From Heptranchias perlo (taxonomy: Eukaryota), in the NCBI RefSeq assembly GCF_035084215.1, contig NC_090328.1, positions 17,236,001-17,300,000 of the forward strand: a DNA stretch of 64,000 nucleotides, given 5' to 3'. Positions 6,646-56,448 of this stretch are shown here, in pieces. Within the stretch, counting starts at the first letter, position 1; each line of letters begins with the position of its first letter. The notes below the pieces were generated by a model, which saw only the letters and a list, made by a program, of their open reading frames with translations, was not told where the DNA came from and searched no databases. Both the position numbers and the translations under genes were made by a program.

Positions 6646-7149
6646 CCCAATGTTAGTCATCAATGCAATTCATGCTAAAGTTCTGTAGAGCTAGCTGGTT
6701 TAGCAATTCTCTGCTGCCAACAGTAAATTAGTTGTAAACGTAGCAGCTTATAGTAAAGATATCCATGTAGATCAGTACAACCATTTATTTAATCAAACAC
6801 CATGTAGTCCCAGATAACAAGGGTCAAAGCTTACCTTGCAAATTCTTTCAAAGTTGCTAAATCAGTTTCCAAGTCCAGATGTATACAACATTTCCTCCCC
6901 AAAAACAAGTTGCATTGCCTTAAAATAATTTATATTTAAAAATATTTTAAATATTAAATAGTCCCAATTTAATAGCTCTCAGCATTTATTCTCCAACATT
7001 TTTAACAGCATCATTTAAATCTTGTAATCAGAATTCAGTCCCCTTTTAACTTTAACCTTTGAATGAATCTTTCAAAACACTTATTGTTGTACAATCACTG
7101 GAATAAAAAGATTATCTCAACTATCTACCAACATGAAACACAAACAGTC

Positions 7150-7860: not shown

Positions 7861-8185
7861 ACCAAGAAAACATGAATTTACATCATTGTATATCTGGGTG
7901 TCAACGGTTTCACTGCACTTACGCACAGGCCAAACAGCAAATTTCAACTACAGTTAAAGTCAGTTAATCAAAATGTTCCTCTAGACATCATTGTAAAGAG
8001 GCTTGTAAACTGGACAAGTGTTGTAGTCTTTCACAATATGAATTTATTTTGTAGACATTCTGCTCGATATAGTTAAGTTCAAGAAAAGTTTACTCAAGGT
8101 TATTTATGTCCTGTATGGCTTTAGCTTTTCTCTCAAGAAACTGGTTTCAGGCATCTTATTAACAGGTTTTATTTTAAAGACTTAC

Positions 8186-8319
8186 CATAACTCCCAGTTG
8201 TGTTGGCACAGATAAGTGCACCAAAAAACTTTGGGTAATATTTTTGAATTCTTGCAATAGCCTTCTGGCAAGCTGTTGTTGGGTCAACCCCTAATCTCAT
8301 ATATTCCACTGCTTGGTAG
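8186..8319 (-). CDS. AGA: AGA exon 8
   Basis: 134 nt, AG/GTAAG; [44 protein letters not shown](G). Confidence 0.97.
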
Positions 8320-9681: not shown

Positions 9682-9789
9682 CTTGGCAGAAATCGCATCA
9701 TAATATCTCCAATTCCAGTAGCAGCTGCAGCTCCAGCTGTGCCATCAGCATAAGCACCTGCTCCAGCTATTGGCGAATCCCCTACGCGG
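9682..9789 (-). CDS. AGA: AGA exon 7
   Basis: 108 nt, AG/GTATGT; [35 protein letters not shown](S), substrate-binding RVGD motif. Confidence 0.97.
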
Positions 9790-12090: not shown

Positions 12091-12166
12091 CCTGGGATTT
12101 TATGCCTTAGACCGTTAGTAGACGTCCCCGCAGCTATGCTTCCGCTTTTATCAATCACAATCATAC
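12091..12166 (-). CDS. AGA: AGA exon 6
   Basis: 76 nt, AG/GTATGT; (G)MIVIDKSGSIAAGTSTNGLRHKIP(G), conserved AGTSTNG motif. Confidence 0.97.
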
Positions 12167-12286: not shown

Positions 12287-12404
12287 CAATGGTGTCGTGG
12301 TTGTGAAAATTGACCTCCTGTACTGGCATTCTCTGTCTTTTTGACCACAGCCCTTTCATTCGCTTGTATGGTCCACAAGAAGTTTTAGCATTTGGAGACA
12401 CATT
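12287..12404 (-). CDS. AGA: AGA exon 5, containing the autoproteolytic HD|T site (catalytic N-terminal nucleophile Thr)
   Basis: 118 nt, AG/GTAAGT; NVSPNAKTSCGPYKRMKGLWSKRQRMPVQEVNFHNHDTI(G). Confidence 0.96.
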
Positions 12405-12549: not shown

Positions 12550-12662
12550 CTTCCAGAAATTGGGCTGGCACTTTTTGCCCAGCCATTCTGAGTGCATGGA
12601 CAGAGATGTATTCATTGTTAATTCTTCACTTAGGAAGCCCATATTCTGAGCAAAAATAGATG
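12550..12662 (-). CDS. AGA: AGA exon 4
   Basis: 113 nt, AG/GTGAG; (A)SIFAQNMGFLSEELTMNTSLSMHSEWLGKKCQPNFWK (within track ORF 12475..12696). Confidence 0.97.
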
Positions 12663-14396: not shown

Positions 14397-14509
14397 CTGC
14401 CTCCCCCACCAACAGTGAATGACTGCTGTGTTCCATCACAGCTCGAGCAACACTGATCGCACTTTTAATTCTTCGAAGGTTTCCAACTGCTCCAACCTCG
14501 ATCGTGTTA
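14397..14509 (-). CDS. AGA: AGA exon 3
   Basis: 113 nt, AG/GT flanked; [37 protein letters not shown]. Confidence 0.97.
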
Positions 14510-15154: not shown

Positions 15155-15308
15155 CCATTCATAATCATAGCATCCAGTGTTGTCTCTCCATGTTCATCTG
15201 GGCTTCCTCCATATCCCACAGTACCACCACACTGGTCAATTTCACACTGACTGCAACCTTTTTCCACTGCATCCAAAGCTGAACCTCCAGACTGAAGAGT
15301 GCTCCATG
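15155..15308 (-). CDS. AGA: AGA exon 2
   Basis: 154 nt, AG/GT flanked; (A)[51 protein letters not shown]. Confidence 0.97.
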
Positions 15309-16660
15309 CTAAATGCAAAACATTTAATCCAAAAACAGTAGAAAGCAGTTTACACAGGGAAAATAAATTTCAACTGGTTTAAGAACGTGTGTGACGCCCT
15401 TTTAAAAAAAAAACACGTCTTGTCCTGGCAATAAAAGTATGAAAATTAAAAAAAGAGAACCAGTTTCAAAAGGAAGTCAAGTTTCAACAGTTGACAATAT
15501 GTGCAGTATCTTTTTTTAAAAATAAAATCACCATAGCACATCTTATCCTTGCAGCAAATGGGTAAAGAAATAATCATTTAATTAGCTAGTCACAGAAGCA
15601 AAAAGTACAGCTTTATGACCAAAGCTCTTAAGTTCCCCACTATTCGACTGACATTATTTAATGGCGATATTAAGGTAGCTCGAACCCCATAGCGCAAGCA
15701 CCATCAATGTAAAATGTAAAAGAACAGATCAGGCAAATCCGAATCAGTGATTAGTTGATGCCAAGAATGGGTTTTAAAAGTCTGTGAATATTGGACAAGA
15801 ATAAGGAAGACAGAAAAATAGGAAATTCCACAATTTCAAGAGCCTGGAAAAGAATGAGTTAGTGTGGAAGACAGTGGCGAGCCTGAGTATTAAACACAAT
15901 AATCCCATACGGAAGAGAAAGTGCATGTAGGGCAGCATAGAAGCTTAGAAAGAACAGAGAAAAGTTTAGAACACTAACTATAGTAATAGATGGAGAAAGG
16001 TTTGAAGTCAAGTAAGAGGGGAAACACTTCTCAAATGAAAAGCCCCTTTTCTTTTCTCTATCTAGGAGTAACAGATGCAAATCCTTCCAGTTATAGGAAT
16101 AATCAGCAGCAATTTCCTCAGCTTCTCCTAGACTAGAGAGTTTGAGGGAAAGGTATTCTGCATAGGTAATAACAGTTGTCTCTAGTCGACACTAGGTCGA
16201 ATTTTAGAGTTACTGTTAGCATCAGCTCTAATGTGACAGATGATACTTTGCCATTATAGAAGTGTTAATATCCCTGAACATGACAAAAAGAAACTTCTGT
16301 GCTGATATGCCACAGTTATACATGCCATTAGTTCAATGTTGAAATGCCGATTGGAATGGAAAGAGCATTGTACTATGAAGAATGGATGCCAGGAGTATAG
16401 CTGTTTGTGATTACTTTCAATGGAGAGTGTATTTTTTTTTAAATGGTTCCTTTATCAAAAAAAAAATCACTACCTCACCTTTTCTGATCTTCACCCTGTA
16501 CAAAATCCTTGCAATACTGCTCGCTTCACTTATTTTATTTAAAACATTTCAAGCCGCTCCATTAAAAAAACGCACACGCTTGGACTTAACACAAGAATGT
16601 AAAAACATTCACCTCATTAGTGAGGTCTGCTTGCTGAAGTTGCTCAGACCATTTCCATCT

Positions 16661-16930
16661 TATAGAATCGTATAGGACAGGAGGCCATTCAGCCCATCGT
16701 GCCTATGCTGGCTCCCATTAATCTCACTCCCCTCTCCCCTGTTCTTTCCCTATAGCCTTGCAAAATTTTCATTCTCAAATATTTATGCAATTCCCTTTCG
16801 AAAGTTACTATTGAATCTGCTTCCACTACCCTTTCAGGCAGTACATTCCTGATCATAACTCGCTGCGTAAAATAATTTTGTCCTCATCTCCCCTCTGGTT
16901 CTTTTGCCAACTACCTTAAATCTGTGTGCT
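16661..16930 (-). mobile_element. CR1 3' fragment in AGA intron 1 (absent from the duplicate)
   Basis: Homologous to 33490-33770; empty site near 24890. Confidence 0.8.
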
Positions 16931-16994
16931 CCCACTCATAATAGTAACACCACGTGTATTTATGGACCAATTTACAACCAAAAAAACCAAAAAC

Positions 16995-17885
16995 AACTTG
17001 CATTTATATAGCGCCTTTAACATAGTAAAACGACCCAAGGCGCTTCACAAGAGCGTTACCAAACAAAAAATTTGACACCAAGCCACATAAGGAGGTATTA
17101 GGACAGGTGACCAAAAGCTTGGTCAAAAAGGTAGGTTTTAAGGAGCATCTTAAAAGGAGAGTGAGATAGAGAGGCTTAGGGAGGGAATTTCAGAGCTTAA
17201 GGCTTAGGCAGCTGAAGGCACGCCGCCAATGGTGCAGTGATTAAAATCGGGGATGTGCGAGAGGCAAGAATTGGAGGAGCGCAGAGATCTTGCAAGGTCG
17301 TAAGGCTGGAGGAGGTTACAGAGATAGGTGAAGCCAGAGAAGGATTTGAAAACAAGGATGAGAATTTTTAAAAATCGAGGCGTTGCTGAATGGGAGCCAA
17401 TGTAGGTCAGCGAGCACAGGGATGATGGGAGAAAGGGACTTGGTGCAAGTTAGGATATGGGCAGCAGAATTTTGGATGAGCTCAAGTTTATGGAGGGTGG
17501 AAGATGGGAGGCCAGCCAGGGGAGCATTGGAATGGTCTGAAGGTAACAAAGGCATGGAATGAGGGTTTTAGCAGATGAGCTGAGGCGGGGGCAGAGACAG
17601 GCAACATTGTGGAGGTGGAGCAGATATGTGGTCAGAAGCTCATCTCAGGGTCAAATAGGACACCAAGGTTGCAAACAGTCTGGTTCAGCCTCAGACAGCG
17701 GCCAGGGAGAAGGATGGAGTCAGTGGCAGCGACCAAAGACAATGACTTCGTTCTTCCCAATATTTAGTTGGAGGAAATTTTTGCTCATGTCAGACCAGCA
17801 ATATGACAAATGAGAGACAGTGGAGGGTCAAGGGAGGTGGTGGTGAGGTAGAGCTGGGTGTTGTCAGCGTACATGTGGAATATGA
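16995..17885 (-). mobile_element. L2-type LINE 3' portion in AGA intron 1 (absent from the duplicate)
   Basis: ORF 17316..17555 LAGLPSSTLHKLELIQNSAAHILT...PVLADLHWLP is typical of the L2 ORF2 C-terminus. Confidence 0.88.
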
Positions 17886-19314
17886 CTTGTTTATTAAAAC
17901 TAAAAATTCAAGGGTGGGGGGGGCGCATATTGTTGAGAAATTAGTTAAGTGTTTGGAAGAGGACTGGGGTGTTAGTGAGTTACTCCACTATATTTTGACA
18001 GCTTTGGGACCAAAGTGTCTTCTCTCAGATAGCTTCAATGTTGCAATTTTTGTCACTGGTTCTGTGATGCTTGGGTGATAAGTTTGCACATCTGTAAATA
18101 GGGTTTGTGATTGCTGCATATCAGGGTTAGATCAGGACACGAGGACCTCGAAATTAGTTTGCGCTGATCTGCTGGCGAGTACGGGAAATGATCCCTGCGC
18201 CTGAACGGGTAGGCCCATGGCAAACCTGATATTGGGCCTCAGGCCTCATTTAAATGAGACCAGTGATCTGCGAACACCTGCTCGGTGTCGCAAGGCAGCT
18301 CGTTGACGAAGAGGCTTCGTATTTTGGGCTGCTGCATCGCCAGAAGCTGCCTTCAGGCAATTCATTAAAGTGGGAGGGAGGCGACTTGGAAAGGGAGGGA
18401 AATTGGGAACGGGTCGATTGGGAGATGGGGGGAGCTTGGGAGAGGGGGGCACAGTGACTAACAGCAACCGCAAATTTTAATGTGGAGTTGGGAGGAACAA
18501 TCCTGCACTTCACGGCTCCACATTCTGGTATTTTTAAAACAAACTTACCTTTTTGGTGGCAGCCTAAAGTAGTCCCTTTAAAAAGGACCACCAGTTGGGC
18601 AACATGTAGATCTGTTTTTTTTTATTGCAGCTAGCCAGGCACTGGTCCCATTCAGGGCAACCCAATTTTGAACAGGGGGTCCCACAGGAGTTAGGCTCCT
18701 TATTTACATACGCAAAGGACTAAATACCTGTTTCAGGCGCAGATCCTGGACGCCTATTTTATTACCATCATCAATAGGGCAGGTGGCGCGCTTCTAGTTA
18801 ATAGTCTAAAAATTCTAGCACTTCCTACCCGCCATATTTGAAGTTTGAGTGCTCGATAAACAGACGTGACACCATCAAATTTCTTGGTCGAGTTTCCTAC
18901 ATAGCAGGAGGGTTTATTAACACTGCACCTATCAGTCAGACTGGTAGCCGCAATTTGGGTTCCAAGCTACAACATTACCCAACACCTACTTAGAATGAAC
19001 TAAATCAGTCTTGTCCAGGAGAGCGCTGTGTCATAGCTCTCTCCCAACAGTTAAAAATGAAAATGTTTAGAAAGCAGGGAGGAGTGAATCCCATTATCTA
19101 AACATTTTAATTGAAGTTAAGTGGATTTACAAATTGTCCAGAGGACCCAATAGACTATGTAAACCAGGTTTGATACTACATTGGATTCACATTCCATCCA
19201 TTGTGAAACCAATGCAGTCCAAGACTATCCTGCCAAGAAGTCTCATGAGACAGCTTCTGACACCAGATTTACAGATCACCATAGTATAAATGTACCATAA
19301 TGCATTTCATAAGG

Positions 19315-19690
19315 TGACTCCAGAGGCTTGAGTACATAATCTAGGCTGACACTCCAGTGCATTACTGAGGGAGTGCTGCACTGTCAGAGGTGCCATCCTT
19401 CGGATGAGATGTTAAACTGAGGTCCAGCCTGTTCTCAGGTGGATGTAAAAGATTCCACGGTACTATTCAAAAGAGCAAGCGAGTTCTCCCAATGTCCTGG
19501 CCAATATTTATCCCTCAATCGACATCACTATAACAAATTATCTGGTCATGATCTCATTGCTTCTCGTGGGGCCTTACAGTGCACAAATTAGCGGTTGCGT
19601 TTCCCTACATTTACAACAGTGACTGCACTTCAAAAGTATTTCATTGTCTGTAAAGCACATCCTAAGGTCGTGAACGACGCTTTACAAAGG
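19315..19690 (+). mobile_element. Deu-domain SINE, 5'-truncated
   Basis: Homology to 13944-14368. Confidence 0.8.
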
Positions 19691-20039
19691 GCAGTTTAGT
19701 TGACGTAGCCACATTGCCAGTACATCACTCACTGGCCACTGACAAACTCACCCAATCATATTACCCACAATATACAAATGACACGGACTGGAGAGAACTG
19801 CTGCACTTGTGCTTAACAGTAACTGCCACATCATCATCCCGAAACTCGTGGTTAAACGTGTTGACAGTACCACACATGCTCATTAGAAGTAATCCTAACC
19901 ACTCCTAGAATTTAAACAGCTCCGTTTTGCATCGCCCCAAAATAACTGGATTAAAGACCGCAAAGTAGCAAACTAGTGCATAATAACTACCACGATACAA
20001 ATGCATGTGGTGTGTAAACATACACAAATGGAGTCACTT

Positions 20040-20345
20040 GGTTTCCCCGCTTTGCTTTGCTTTGCAGTGCAGCGCAGTGCCTGGCTGTCACTCACCTCGC
20101 TGCGTTGCGTCTTTAAAGGGCCAGGTGTTGATGACGAGGGGCAGCTGGGCGGCCGCGAGCGAGCAGCTGGCGCTGAGCGCGAGGATGACGGGGAGGCAGC
20201 CCGGGAACCCCATAGCGGCGCGAGCCCGATCCCAATCCCCGGGCACAGTGAGAGCCCCCGCACCGCTTATCACTACTTATACCAAGAAGTTCCTCGCTTC
20301 CTACCACACCCACGTACGGTGGCTGCCAACGGACGGCGAGGGAGG
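20040..20345 (-). promoter_or_regulatory. CpG-rich promoter/first-exon island of AGA exon 1a
   Basis: Strong local GC and CpG enrichment around the ATG in an otherwise CpG-poor background. Confidence 0.7.
20096..20213 (-). CDS. AGA: Aspartylglucosaminidase coding exon 1 (proximal copy, 1a): signal peptide and start of alpha chain
   Basis: ATG at 20213 in GCCGCTATGG context; encodes MGFPGCLPVILALSASCSLAAAQLPLVINTWPFKDATQR (human ...LPLVVNTWPFKNAT); 118 nt, phase-1 donor G|GTGAGT. Confidence 0.95.
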
Positions 20346-20749
20346 CAGTACTTCATTCTTAAAAAAAAAATCAAACTGCCTGCTGAGCAAGACTGCAAGG
20401 TCTGCTCCTCTCCAGCTGTCATCGGATCCCCTTCCCCATTATGATTTTAGCATGTTCTAATTTAATGGGGAAGGCACGTGTGTGTTTGGAGTTAAAATGG
20501 TACTTTTATTGCAAATGTAATATTCCTCTCAGAGTAATTTGACTTTTATGTATCTCTCCAAGTTAATTTAATAGATTTTTAAAAAAATCGACTTTCAGTT
20601 TTAGAATCTGAATAGCCAGTGTCCTGGCCAATATTTATCCCTCAATCAACACCTAAAAACAGATTATCTGGTCATTATCACATTGCTGTTTCTGGGAGCT
20701 TGCTGTGCACAAATTGGCTGCATTACAACAGCTGTGTTTCCTACATTAC

Positions 20750-20985
20750 GTGGAGATGCCGGTGACGGACTGGGGTTGACAATTGTAAACAATTTTACAA
20801 CACCAAGTTATAGTCCAGCAATTTTATTTTAAATTCACAAGCTTTCGGAGGCTACCTCCTTCCTCAGGTGAACGATGTGGACATTTCACATCGTTCACCT
20901 GAGGAAGGAGGTAGCCTCCGAAAGCTTGTGAATTTAAAATAAAATTGCTGGACTATAACTTGGTGTTGTAAAATTGTTTACAATT
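20750..20985 (-). mobile_element. Short Penelope-like element with inverted pseudo-LTR (99-bp perfect palindrome), inserted in a SINE
   Basis: Arms 20781-20879 and 20887-20985 are exact reverse complements with a 7-nt spacer; flanked by the direct repeat TTTCCTACATTAC (20737-20749 and 20984-20996); contains a minimal hammerhead motif. Confidence 0.85.
20894..20932 (+). ncRNA. Minimal type I hammerhead ribozyme motif (mirror copy on the minus strand at 20834-20872)
   Basis: UUCAC-CUGAGGA-A-GGAGG-UAG-CCUCC-GAAA-GC-UU-GUGAA: stem I, CUGANGA core, stem II, GAAA, palindromic AAGCUU in place of helix III. Confidence 0.7.
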
Positions 20986-21092
20986 TCCTACATTACAACA
21001 GTGACTACACTTGAAAAGTACTTCCATTGTTTATAAAGTGTGTTAGGACCATGTGAAAGGTGCTATATTGATGCAAGTCTTTCTTTTCCCAG

Positions 21093-21412
21093 TAGGGTTG
21101 CCAACTCTGGTGTCAGATATTCCTGGAGGATTGATCACATGACACTAACCCACAGTTTGCACATGTTATTGCATTTACCTTATGGCGGTTGGGTCCCCTG
21201 TAGTGGAGTATCTTTGCTCGCGGTTTTGCGCCTGCAGCTGTCACGCGAGAAGCTCCGAGAACCAGGAGGTCGCTCGTGAGCTGGCGAAGAAAGTATGCAG
21301 GCACAAACCACAGATGCAAACTGCAAGCTATACTTTTCTCCCGAGTCACTATCAGCAGTGTCATGGAGATTAATCTTCCATTCCAGGCAATCCAGGATGG
21401 TTGGCAACCTTA
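21093..21412. mobile_element. hAT-Blackjack-like MITE
   Basis: TIRs TAGGGTTGCCAAC / GTTGGCAACCTTA (12/13); no clear 8-bp TSD. Confidence 0.55.
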
Positions 21413-21609
21413 CCCCAATGCTGATTCCTGCCCACTGACCCGGGATAGAGGGAGGGAATATCAGCCAAGGTTCCTGCTCCTGATCACTATCCAGTGACCC
21501 TCTACTGCAAACCATCAGTGGATGTTGGGCGAGGACTGGATCAGGGTTAGCTGTTACGACTTTCAAGGCGAATAGTCTGCTGGACTTCAAACACTGATAA
21601 GTGAGTGCC

Positions 21610-21840
21610 TGGGTAAGATACGGGGTGGAGGGAAACAAAGACAGGGTAGGGTAGGGTGGGGTGGGGAGGGAAAGAGGTGAAAAGGAGGAGAAAATGATTG
21701 GGGCAATGGATAAGGGAGGAGAAACAGAGAGGGGAAGAGGAGACACCAATGGGGGAGGGTAAAGGACTAGAATCTGAGGGGAAGGAGGGTAAAATGAAGG
21801 TGGGAGAGGGAATTGCAGGGGAGGTGTCAGGAGGTGGGAC
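21610..21840. repeat. Purine/G-rich low-complexity tract
   Basis: GGGTAGGGTAGGGTGGGGTGGGG and GA-rich runs. Confidence 0.7.
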
Positions 21841-22399
21841 AAACTTTGATTCCACCAGTAACTAATAATTAATTACTCACAAATTGCACCGGTAACTAAA
21901 AAGTAATATTGTTAACACTCAGATTCCCCTCAATCAGCAGCAATAAAATAACTCACTGACAGTCTATATAACACCCCAATATCCTACATGTAACTAGTAT
22001 TAATCCTATAACCCTTTGATATTCGCCAAGTAACTACAGCAAGAATTCCCCTGCACTGCATAAGGTGCAGTTAGGCTTCCTAGTCAATGCCACTTTTAAC
22101 AGGCCCCGTCATTCTCCCTACCTCTTTGGGCTACGGTTCTGTGCGAAGATGACAAATCTAAACTGGAAGCCTCAGTCAGAGCTGATCTGTACTTAGACTT
22201 TACAGGTTGAAGGGGAGGAAAACCAAAATCGGCCAATACAGACCGACCTGAACCGAACTGTGAGATCGCGTAAAGGGGAGCGGGTTCGATGTTTTGGGCA
22301 CTTCTCAAAGGGCACAGCCTCCCAAACTCAACCCAACACCATCATTTTTAAACCAGTCCCTGGACTCAGACTCGTTAAACGGAGAGTTTACAAAGATTA

Positions 22400-22995
22400 A
22401 TAGAAATTGCAGCACAGGAAGTGGTCATTCGGCCCCAGTGCCTGTGCTGGTGCTTTGACTGGAGCTCTCTTCTCTAATCGTATTCCTCCTCTGATCCTTT
22501 TATATTCCACCTTCATAAATACTTATCCCATTCCCTCTTAAATTATGTTATAGTTTCTGTCTCAATAGCCACTTGTGGTGAAGCACCCCATGATCTAATA
22601 GCCCTCGATGTAAAAATCTTCCTTCTCTAAAACATAATAGGACCAGGAGTGGGCCATACGGCCCCTCGAGCCTGCTCCACCATTCAATCAGATCATGGCT
22701 GATCTTCAACCTCAACTCAACTCTCCTGCCCAATCCCCATATCCCTCAATTCCCCTACAGTCCAAAAATCTATCTATCTCAGCCTTGAATATACTCAACG
22801 ACCCAGCATCCACAGCCCTCTGAGGTAGAGAATTCCAATGATTCACAACCCTCTCAGTGAAGAAATTTCTCCTTATCTCAGTCTTAAATGGCCGACCCCT
22901 TATCCTGAGACTATGCCCTCTAGTTCTATACTCTCCAGCCAGGGGAAACAACCTCTCAGCATCTAGCATGTCAAGTCCCCTCAGAATCTTATAAA
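22400..22995 (-). mobile_element. Two adjacent CR1 3' fragments
   Basis: ORF 22712..23005 RTRGHSLRIRG...FFTERVVNHWNSLP; older fragment at 22400-22625. Confidence 0.88.
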
Positions 22996-23354
22996 ACCCC
23001 TTCATGCCCTACCATTACCTTCATAACTATTTTGTACACATGGGAAAACTGGCACCCATCGAATAAATGCCTCTTCCTCCTGTGTTTCTAGATTTTAATT
23101 CAATCAACAAATGCAATTTATAGGTTGACAGATGTGGGTAGAGTAGCCCCCTTCTCCCTTGGTTCTTCCCTATGAGATTCCTCAGTCTTTATCCTTTTGT
23201 TCCTCATACGCCCACCATTGGAAACAATCTTTCACTATTTACCCAGAGTAAAGTCCCCAAGTTTCATTCCCCCATTTACTGGCTGCTCCTCTTTTGGTAC
23301 CACTCTCACTCACTATGTTACTGCTGCAGGAAATTCTGGGCCCCAATTGCCCTG

Positions 23355-23706
23355 ATTCCTAGTCTCCATCTTTCTCTCCCCCTTCCGCCACCCAGCAACC
23401 CACCCCCTGAGCCCTAAACCCCTGACCTCCAGTTTTCCTCTCTTCCACCCCAAGCTCCAGTCCTCCAGCCCTCCATGCCCCAGTCACCCTCTCTCCCCAA
23501 CCCCCAGTCCTCCTCTCCCTCCTCCCCCACCCCACCAGAGGCCCGATCCCCTAACCCCATTTCTCCCCAAGTGCTCAATCCCTGAGCCATAGCCCACTGT
23601 TGCCCTCTTTCCCACCCCCAGCCCCAACCCAATCCCCTGCCCCCTAGTTCTCATTTAGCTTCTTCCAGCCCAGCTCCACCCCTCTCCCTAGTCTGTCTTC
23701 CCCCAC
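23355..23706. repeat. Pyrimidine/C-rich low-complexity tract
   Basis: Many C runs on the + strand. Confidence 0.7.
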
Positions 23707-23744
23707 ATGTACATATCTATCTTTCTTGAGTCGGCTTGAAGTAA

Positions 23745-24065
23745 AGAAAGGCAGACAGACTTGCAATTATATAGTGTCTTTCACGACCTCAGGATGTCCC
23801 AAAGCGCTTTACAACCTTTGAAGTGCTTTTGAAGTGTAGTCACAGTTGTGATGTAGGAAACACGGCAGCCAATTTGCACACGGCAGCCAATTTGCACACG
23901 GCAATATGATAATGACCAGATAATCTGTTTTAGTGATGTTGGTTGAGGGATAAATATTGGCCAGGATACCAAGGAGAACGCCCCTGCTCTTCTTCAAATA
24001 GTGCCATGGGATCTTTTACATCCACCTGAGGGGACAGCCAGGGCCTCGGTTTAATGTCTCATTGC
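23745..24065 (-). mobile_element. Deu-domain SINE with internal 18-bp tandem duplication
   Basis: Reverse complement of the SINE tail and core; CACGGCAGCCAATTTGCA repeated twice. Confidence 0.82.
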
Positions 24066-25784
24066 AGAGAGGTGATGTCACCGAGCGGGAGATGGTCTTA
24101 CTGCTGTGGCAGCAGAAGGTCGTCATGTGGACCTTCCTCATCTCTCTGTTAAAATGATCAAACATTTATCAAATGACAAGCCTCTTTCCCCCCTGTCAAG
24201 GAGTAAGAGAAGTTCACAAAGGCTCCCCAGGTATAGAGATAATAACAATTCCCTCAGGGCTTCTATTGCTCAGCCATCATAAGTAAACAGGGTTTCCGCC
24301 AAAGTTACGGCAACAGTGTGAGAAAACCCTCAGGGAAATTCCTGATGAATATTGTAGTCTCGGATGGACTTGAGCTTTGGAGAGAGAGTTTTTGAAGGGG
24401 AAATTATTCTGTTTAGGACGTAACAAAATTACCACTAGTCGGCACCATGGGTAGAATTTTACTGTTAGCATCAGCTGTAATGTGACACAGATAATACTTT
24501 GCTATTATAGATGTGTTAACATCGCCTACCATAACAAAAAGGAACTGATGTGCCATAGTAATCTATGCCGTCAGTTTAATATTGAAATGCCAATTTGAAT
24601 GGAGAACTAGAGCATAGTTCGGATGCCAGAAGTATAGCTGTCTGGGACTACTTTCACTGGCAAGTGTATTTTTTTTTTAAATGTTCTTTTATCAAACAAA
24701 AATCACACTACCTCACCTTTTCTGATCTTCACCCTGTACAAAATATTGCTTGCTTCACTAACTTATTTCATTTAAACATTCCAAGCCCCGCCATACAAAA
24801 AACAACACAATTGGACTGAATAATGAACGTAGGAAGCCTCATCTCATTAGTGAGATCTACTGACTGAAGTTGCTTAGATAATTTTCATCTCCTTCCTAAC
24901 TTTTGCTAGTCGTAGCAACTCCATGTGCATTTACCGACTGATTCACTAACATTAAAATTAAAAATTCAAAGTGTATTGTTGAGAAATTGAATGTGTTTGG
25001 AAGAGGACTTGGCTGTTACAATGGGTTAAATCCACTACACGTTGGCAGTTCTGGGACCAAAGTTTATTCTTTCCTGATAGCTTCAATGTTGCAATGATAT
25101 TGCACTTTTGTCACTGGTTCTGTGATGCCTTGGGTGATAAGTTTGCACATCTGTAAATAGGGTTTGTGATTGCTGCATGTCAGTGATACATCAGGAGGCT
25201 TATGCCTAGAAAAGGCCAGCACAAACTGGGTGCAGGGATCGACCAGTACTATTTTGCTACCTACACCAAAATGGCAGGTGGCACACTTCAGGCTCATAAT
25301 GATCATGCACTTCCTGCCCACCATATTGGAGGCTTAGGCACTCGTTTGTCACCCAAAAAACACACAGCAACATCAAATTTCTTTGCCTAAGATCCTACAT
25401 GGCAGAAGGGTTCATTTACACTGCACCTACCAGTCGGACTAGCAGCTGCACCATGGGCTCTCTCCAGTTACAGCATTACCCAACACTTACTTAGCAGGAA
25501 CTAAATCAGTCTGGTGCTGGTGAAAGCGGGCGGTGTATATACCTGGACACAGAAGGGAGCATTACTCTCGTCCCAACAGTTTAAAAATGTAAATGTTTAG
25601 AAAGCAGGGGAGGAGAGAATCCTCACCACATTTTAACTGAAGTTAGGTGGATTTGTTAAAAGCTAACAACTCCCCCGAAAATAACCGGATTAAGGACTAA
25701 AAGTAGCGTCTGGTGCACGAGTTTATAATAACTATCACGATACAAATGCAAGTCACGTCTAAAGAGACCCAAGCGTGGGCTACT

Positions 25785-26070
25785 TTGCAGTGCCTGGCTG
25801 TCACTCACCTCGCTGCACTGCGTCATAATAGGGCCAGGTGTTGATGACGAGGGGCAGCTGGGCGGCCGCGAGCGAGCAGCTGGCGCTGAGCGCGAGGATG
25901 ACGGGGAGGCAGCCCGGGAGCCCCATAGCGGCGCGAGCCCGATCCCAATCCCCGGGCACAGTGAGAGCCCCCGCACCGCTTATCACTACTTATACCAAGA
26001 AGTTCCTCGCTTCCTACCACACCCACGTACGGTGGCTGCAGAAGAACGGCGAGGGCACCACCTCCCCGTA
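25785..26070 (-). promoter_or_regulatory. CpG-rich promoter/first-exon island of duplicated exon 1b
   Basis: CpGs retained; near-identical to the 1a island. Confidence 0.6.
25809..25926 (-). CDS. AGA: Duplicated AGA exon 1 (distal copy, 1b): candidate alternative first exon or pseudo-exon
   Basis: 118 nt, same Kozak context and same phase-1 G|GTGAGT donor; MGLPGCLPVILALSASCSLAAAQLPLVINTWPYYDAVQR; no exon-2 copy seen between 20540 and 24160. Confidence 0.7.
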
Positions 26071-26654
26071 TATACCTTTATTGCAAATTTAATATTCCTC
26101 TCCCCAAGTTATTTTAATACAGCCCTTTCCCCAATTTACCATAGAGGTATTGGGCAGTTTTAGTATCTCCTTCCAGAGACTCGACATTTTGGTTTCTTTC
26201 GGCCGAGGTGTTACTCCCAGCGATGACGTGAGGTTTCTCTAAAAGTTCTGCTGTTGCAAGATCATCTTTTAATGTTGATTTTGGAGTTGTATAAATTGGG
26301 TAAAGTTGTACAGAAGGGAGGGAGAAAGAGGAAAAGCGAAATGTTGAATAGTTCTCCTTTATAAACCTTGTAGTGTTGATAGTTCCGGGCAATTCAGATC
26401 ACGGACTGCTTACACAGATTTCCCTGCAACTGCTCATCAACTAACTCATCAACCTCACCATTTTTAACTTGCTCCAAATTTTGTGGGTTTTCTAATTAGA
26501 ATGGTATTTTGAGTCGGAGCATAATTATTGCTCTGCGTGTTAAACTTGCTATCTATGAAATAAAACAGCTTAATTATTTTGTATCTGGTCTCATCTTACT
26601 AAGTGTTTAATTGGTTTGTTTTTGAAAATATTGAAAAAGCACGTGAGAGTACAT

Positions 26655-56214: not shown

Positions 56215-56448
56215 GTGGAGATGCCGGTGATGGACTGGGGTTGACAATTGTAAACAATTTTACAACACCAAGTTATAATCCAACAATTTTATTTGAAATT
56301 CACAAGCTTTCGGAGGCTTCCTCCTTCCTCAGGTGAATGTTGTGGAAATGAAATCCTCGAACCCTTCGCATTTATAAATCACAGAACAATACCTGGTGAT
56401 TACAGATAGTCTTTCCTTGGCTGCCTTGGCAACGGGCAGTTGGAAAGA
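56215..56448 (-). mobile_element. Second copy of the same Penelope-like family (3' end), with hammerhead motif at 56299-56337 (-)
   Basis: Starts GTGGAGATGCCGGTGATGGACTGGGG like 20750; about 130 bp closely similar to 20750-20880, then additional element sequence. Confidence 0.82.

Follow-up and report, generated by a model that had tools for sequence, protein, structure and literature searches.

The AGA gene of the shark Heptranchias perlo has two first exons, 1a and 1b, in front of a single body. We consider it probable that exon 1b is the surviving first exon of an old type-B AGA gene whose other exons have been deleted, and that it is spliced at a low level onto the shared exons 2–9 to give a chimera with the type-B loop. 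The combination of a type-B motif, a genome-unique collinear remnant of intron 1 and a single gene body leads us to read 1b as the 5′ end of a lost tandem paralog. Positions are those of the window, the whole stretch of 64,000 nucleotides that was analysed (contig NC_090328.1, 17,236,001 to 17,300,000).

The two first exons, their flanks and the shared body

The coding part of exon 1b (25809..25926, minus strand) encodes a putative signal peptide and the mature N-terminus NTWPYYDAVQR with the type-B motif; a phase-1 GT donor comes next, at 25808. Exon 1a (20096..20213, minus strand) encodes the canonical, type-A sequence NTWPFKDATQR and is joined to exon 2 in all four RNA-type runs. The initial annotation had described 1b as a second first exon with the length and donor of 1a, and this is borne out: each exon is 118 nt long and in phase 1, with identical donors (GTGAGTGACAGCCA), and the two ATGs are separated by 5,713 nt. 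The six nucleotide differences that it had reported are likewise confirmed; they lie at CDS nt 7, 98, 100, 102, 109 and 110, and all change amino acids (F3L, F33Y, K34Y and T37V). Five of them (F33Y, K34Y, T37V) fall within a 13-nt patch (25817..25829, minus strand) that is flanked by stretches of full identity, 90 nt on one side and 30 nt on the other. This clustering has a post hoc P of about 0.002. That all six are non-synonymous has a P of about 0.17, and an argument for positive selection from this was rejected as not significant. In neither isoform is there an N-x-T sequon (25809-25830, 20096-20117) where 1APY_A has NAT, a sequon that is glycosylated in human AGA.

Exon 1b sits in a 269-nt block (25787..26055, minus strand; GC 0.65, CpG o/e 0.83) made up of the 5′ region, exon 1 and the first 22 nt of the intron, which is 96.3% identical to 20074-20342 and has exactly two matches genome-wide. 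The identical runs around exon 1 measure 119, 90 and 30 nt, the last extending 22 nt into the intron, and we take the block to be a probable gene-conversion tract. The intact promoter claimed for 1b is a candidate, read from a CpG-rich stretch of 119 nt, identical in both copies, that lies upstream of CDS nt 7. In contigs from raw DNA, exon 1b is present with separate flanks of its own. Contig depths in run X1 were 8.5 and 8.8 for the 1b flanks (0 other letters), 12.1 and 11.4 for the 1a flanks and 17.6 for the shared block, and this separation indicates that both exon copies are real; X1 possibly derives from the assembled sample, and as such checks the assembly and is not independent of the animal.

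Downstream of 1b lies a decayed copy of AGA intron 1 (24160..25786, minus strand), in five collinear blocks that are 69-80% identical to 16022-20027. The blocks fall within 24160-25772. At 24160 the similarity breaks off beside a dispersed repeat (~23746-24062), some 0.7 kb before the place where exon 2 would be expected. In a genome-wide comparison 24160-24900 pairs best with the 1a intron, at E 3e-92; none of its 12 other matches is stronger than 2e-7. The arrangement points to a deletion breakpoint at or below 24160. No exon 2-9 remnants were detected in the spacer with dispersed repeats that follows (20531..24159, no strand), nor was an exon 2-9 copy found between 1b and 1a by Smith-Waterman scoring against shuffles or by HMM, in agreement with the earlier claim that no exon-2 copy follows 1b. 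A high score for exon 9 and its 3′ flank in 20530-24400 was discarded, as it lay on the opposite strand on a dispersed repeat; no other score rose above shuffles. No exon 2-9 remnant was found in 100 kb of neighbouring DNA, a whole-genome search returned one AGA body, and N letters are absent from the window and from the 100 kb of neighbours. About 0.6 kb upstream of exon 1a there is a near-perfect palindrome of 205 nt (97.6%; 20781-20985; partial copy at 56215-56350) that resembles a small inverted-repeat element.

The proposal that 1b is a locally remodelled duplicate exon is largely undone by these results: the type-B motif and the intron-1 remnant suggest instead that it is what is left of a second AGA gene. 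Its start codon, open frame, donor and phase are all compatible with shared exon 2, so the in-frame splicing foreseen by the initial annotation is possible, and RefSeq, by automatic prediction, has an isoform X2 (XP_067838626.1) that corresponds exactly to exon 1b plus exons 2-9.

The shared body comprises, on the minus strand, exon 2 (15155..15308), exon 3 (14397..14509), exon 4 (12550..12662), exon 5 (12287..12404, 3′ end approximate), which terminates in HDT with the nucleophile Thr204, exon 6 (12091..12166, 5′ end approximate), exon 7 (9682..9789), which holds R232, D235, T255, G256 and I257, and exon 8 (8184..8319); exon 9 lies outside the window at G000:C4:17233243-17233338. Against isoform X1 of the RefSeq AGA entry for Heptranchias perlo, the exons in the window are 100% identical. 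A further predicted isoform, X3, uses an alternative last exon (6860-6919, minus strand) with 20 unrelated residues in place of exon 9. Elsewhere in the genome there is another gene of the Asparaginase_2 family at G000:C8:89825665-89831972, only distantly similar to AGA with 47-61% in short segments, and three other loci of the family lie on C5 and C8.

The body is a mosaic of the two AGA types described below. It is A-like at residues 98 and 101 (A98 and N101, exon 3), 173, 181 and 297, B-like at 225 (L225, exon 6), 257 and 302, and has Gly at 67 (codon 15226-15228, GGT), a site that is Asp in 21/21 type-A and Arg in 19/19 type-B proteins. The B-like state at 225, 257 and 302 is also found in Pristiophorus A. 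Gly67 was confirmed in RNA contigs. In runs X6-X8 one contig of 1.3 kb shows no other letters across the listed exons, and its depth equals that of the whole exon 4-5 bin, which indicates that Gly67 is real and that no second body is visible at 88% likeness. In the exon-2 bin there is unexplained extra depth in X6 and X8. A reading of Gly67 as a unique intermediate between Asp and Arg is weakened, as Gly67 also occurs in Latimeria and Syngnathoides. Residue 257 (exon 7), beside the conserved Thr-Gly, is Ile, Met or Val in sharks and Asp or Asn in 100 bony-vertebrate rows, a possible shark-wide change near the active site.

Type A and type B AGA in elasmobranchs

AGA proteins of 21 other elasmobranch species (12 sharks, 9 batoids) were gathered from protein searches and cluster look-ups. 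Two full-length types are present in 19 of the 21 (11/12 sharks, 8/9 batoids). In most of the elasmobranchs sampled AGA is thus a family of two genes, which the initial annotation did not foresee. Mustelus asterias and Pristis pectinata yielded no type-B protein, which is not evidence of loss. The protein searches retrieved no AGA of other hexanchiforms, and the Callorhinchus proteins retrieved are A-like. Type A, the canonical W-x-F33 form, has F33 and D67 in 21/21, G98 in 3/21 and L225 in 2/21, and type B, with W-P-Y33 and V or A at 37, has Y33 in 17/19 and R67, G98 and L225 each in 19/19, the classes having been assigned from these same residues. The fair test of the classes is whether the exon-1 motif goes together with residues in exons 2, 3 and 6, and it does. 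Outside the cartilaginous fishes both canonical positions are nearly fixed, with F33 in 98 of 100 bony-vertebrate rows (the other two are without a proper N-terminus) and D67 in all 100; among 162 non-chondrichthyan proteins of a wider set, Y33 occurs in one and G67 in two.

Exon 1a is of type A. Exon 1b is of type B, its NTWPYYDAVQR standing one residue apart from the common shark NTWPYHDAVQR, and a search for conservation of PYYDAV, suggested by the initial annotation, found PYHDAV-like motifs in other sharks and in rays. In the type-B proteins of Rhincodon and Stegostoma, which form a long branch, PYHDAV is replaced by PNQVVV and PDQVAA. The product of 1b with exons 2-9 has G67, A98 and N101 and is without the type-B residues R67, G98 and Q101 (Q101 in sharks). 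Judged by these residues, isoform X2 is an A/B chimera and not a type-B member, and with R67, G98 and Q101 absent it would be only partly type B, the full type-B specialisation not being rebuilt.

Phylogenies from two residue ranges of the protein differ. Over residues 24-128 the 19 B proteins of sharks and batoids group in a single clade (99/96), a result that is partly circular given how the classes were assigned. Over residues 40-342 B does not form one (p-AU 0.033), and in Pristiophorus and in Heterodontus the A and B proteins of the genus pair with each other. In our reading a single duplication preceded the split of sharks and batoids, and gene conversion recurred afterwards; a pair of independent, convergent duplications is less likely. 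The split is put at 261-306 Ma in PMC3692497. Within-species A/B pairs of 11 sharks have 15-23 of 23 signal-peptide residues in common but only 1-3 of 7 at positions 33-39, a pattern that fits conversion with selection sparing the patch. The preserved patch may predate the undated deletion in Heptranchias, so that selection after the deletion is only a possibility. Near-consecutive accessions and within-species agreement of records, rather than DNA, suggest that A and B are adjacent in other species as well.

There is also a hint of type B at the protein level. In chain catshark skin mucus, two peptides with 8% coverage, from 1 of 10 samples, were assigned to A0A401NTT0 (PMC10707392, in a table whose column heads were taken from the dogfish sheet), an entry that represents type B of Scyliorhinus torazame. 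Of the fully tryptic peptides common to the torazame A and B entries, the longest two add up to 23 residues, which is less than 8%; since common peptides fall short of the coverage, at least one of the mucus peptides is probably B-specific, though missed cleavages were allowed.

The encoded proteins are recognisable glycosylasparaginases. PF01112 (Asparaginase_2) matches on the exons, phmmer aligns the protein to 1APY_A with E 3e-70, a hydrophobic N-terminus precedes the region aligning to residue 2 of 1APY_A, and the predicted structure of X2 (mean pLDDT 75), an Ntn-hydrolase fold, matches glycosylasparaginase precursors, 1P4K among them (TM 0.72/0.83, E 1.6e-32). T204, R232, D235, T255, G256 and W31 align with human AGA and are near-invariant. 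In the X2 model residues 32-33 lie between a strand (26-31) and a helix (34-45). In canonical AGA the Phe two residues after the Trp presumably lines the glycan side of the pocket, and residue 33 would contact the glycan. No literature source was found for a role of human F36 or D70. The Trp itself, W34 in human and W31 here, is listed as a substrate-binding residue of AGA in PMC5524358, and mutants of the bacterial equivalent W11, which is needed for activity and processing, keep about 3% activity according to PMC13204146. The 1a and 1b isoforms are three mature residues apart on an identical body. With catalytic residues common to both they should carry out the same type of reaction, and we predict that both are glycosylasparaginases that differ from each other in substrate preference or activation rate. 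A trafficking difference arising from the signal peptide, in which one residue differs, is unlikely.

Possible expression of exon 1b and competing accounts

Six of 18 sequencing runs were compared with the locus. The RNA data are four runs, X5-X8, of one sample, the RNA nature of which was guessed, and consist of contigs only. The earlier call was for reads joining 1b to exon 2. This junction is predicted by RefSeq as X2, a model that could rest on alignments of relatives' type-B proteins; no 1b-to-exon-2 junction was found among the junction contigs listed in X5-X8, which are all 1a-type. Contigs drop minor variants and show presence, not absence. They also break where the assembly graph branches, and breaks at diagnostic sites can be read in this way. 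The mRNA contigs of X6, X7 and X8 begin at CDS nt 8, one base past the diagnostic site at nt 7, and the junction contig of X5 begins at 25859, at the same graph branch as in the DNA run and 30 nt from the nt-98 site. In addition, 25927..26400, which includes 1b-specific upstream DNA and is single-copy apart from a short repeat, lies within an unstranded X5 contig of 598 nt with depth 41.6 and 1 other letter. Nothing in X5 covers 25400-25807, in the 1b intron. The graph breaks and the upstream X5 contig together suggest minor 1b expression. Heterozygosity at nt 7 of exon 1a might explain the start at nt 8, the break in X5, a heavily fragmented run, could have arisen by chance, and the upstream contig may be antisense. 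On balance we think it likely that a spliced 1b mRNA exists as a minor form in these tissues. In the RNA-type run X16, from a related organism, low-depth contigs match 26195-26356 (upstream of 1b) and 25494-25609 (1b intron remnant), hinting at homologous flanks there; the sole exon-1 contig of that run is type A.

For the origin of the locus we propose that the ancestral tandem order was B then A, and that a deletion would have run from late intron 1 of B to a point upstream of the promoter of A. Repeated gene conversion may have homogenised the exon-1 blocks, with selection sparing residues 33-37. Transcription would then start at the 1b promoter, exon 1a, which has no evident acceptor role, would be skipped, and the exon-2 acceptor would be used. 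The rim of the substrate pocket would be altered in the product, because the turn that follows Trp31 and the beginning of the first helix are made up of residues 32-37.

The same origin could have left 1b with no selected role, as a dying remnant that is intact by virtue of recent deletion and conversion from 1a and yields at most leaky transcripts. We regard this as rather unlikely while giving it serious weight: conversion alone accounts for an ATG, reading frame and donor that are still intact, exons 2-3 no longer have the partner B residues, the junction contigs listed are only 1a-type, the upstream X5 contig reaches about 1% of the AGA exon contig depth (a weak measure), and only an A-type exon 1 appears in X16. 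It sits less easily with the existence of RefSeq X2, with graph breaks at diagnostic sites in all four runs and with the persistence of the B patch inside an otherwise homogenised tract. Divergent transcription is known at human AGA, and the 1b block might instead be mainly regulatory, for example a bidirectional CpG promoter for an upstream antisense RNA or for AGA dosage, with the residue differences as neutral relics. The X5 contig does reach at least 470 nt upstream of the ATG, and the seven sense-strand ATG triplets in 25927-26524 are awkward for a 5′ UTR; such a role would leave both the conserved B patch and the X2 model unexplained, the contigs are unstranded, and we judge it very unlikely.

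Tandem paralogs with conversion are prone to collapse in assembly and 19/21 relatives have two genes, so two full genes might have been merged and the type-B body dropped. Against this, the 1.3-kb contig of X6-X8 leaves no exon 4-5 depth for a second body at 88% likeness, the introns of the copies, at 69-80%, are too divergent to collapse, and there are no N letters in the window or its 100 kb neighbours, making an artefact highly improbable. A lineage-specific duplication of exon 1a alone, later remodelled to PYYDAV, would agree with the 96% identity of the exon-1 blocks. The motif nevertheless matches type B of sharks and batoids, and 1.6 kb of genome-unique intron-1 homology at 69-80% speaks for an older and larger duplication, by which this account is largely refuted; we give it hardly any credence.

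Meaning and comparison with known systems

If exon 1b of a former type-B gene is spliced as we propose, one gene could make both ancient versions of the active-site loop. Two old paralogs would here have merged into a single gene that has alternative first exons, the reverse of the usual passage from isoforms to duplicated genes. The isoform pair on an identical body offers a clean test of how the loop after Trp34 tunes the human disease enzyme (aspartylglucosaminuria), and an AGA paralog common to sharks and batoids changes positions that hardly vary in other vertebrates. Should 1b turn out not to be expressed, the locus would keep a modest interest as a well-preserved trace of a paralog lost recently. 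A bolder version of our reading, which we hold only tentatively and think somewhat doubtful, is that sharks and rays have maintained a second, undescribed AGA over 260-300 million years, its active-site rim retuned by Y33, R67, G98 and L225 and its role a separate one in mucosa, possibly as a secreted protein, that this shark re-fused both genes, and that selection keeps both first exons so that both pocket variants are made on an A/B mosaic body.

AGA itself is well known, as PMC9140057, PMC5120323, PMC8256714 and PMC9248843 attest. The 1b isoform is already in RefSeq, and none of tandem duplication, conversion or the use of alternative first exons is new as a process. What appears to be undescribed is the merging of two old paralogs into a single gene with two first exons, and likewise the B paralog: a search confined mostly to open-access literature listed no paper on elasmobranch AGA duplication or on a type-B paralog.

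Compared with lysosomal AGA (EC 3.5.1.26; PF01112; PDB 1APY, 1P4K), the gene has a putative signal peptide and the same W31 (human W34), HD-T204 cleavage site, R232, D235, T255 and G256, but differs in having two first exons, in the Tyr of isoform 1b in place of the almost universal Phe of bony vertebrates, and in Gly67 of the shared body where their rows have Asp. RefSeq X2 has the same exons as the predicted 1b isoform and says nothing on paralog origin. The elasmobranch ‘AGA-like’ type-B proteins (XP_078417926.1, XP_067885429.1, XP_072904149.1 and UniProt A0A401NTT0) have, like the chimera, Y33 and V37 in exon 1 and L225 in the body; they are full-length with R67 and G98 (and Q101 in sharks), whereas here only exon 1 and part of intron 1 are left. 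In the UGT1A and clustered protocadherin loci, variable first exons with their own promoters are spliced to constant exons. As in those clusters, alternative first exons here give a variable N-terminal part to a shared body, but there are two such exons with few variable residues, and their origin would lie in the collapse of two whole genes rather than in serial exon duplication.
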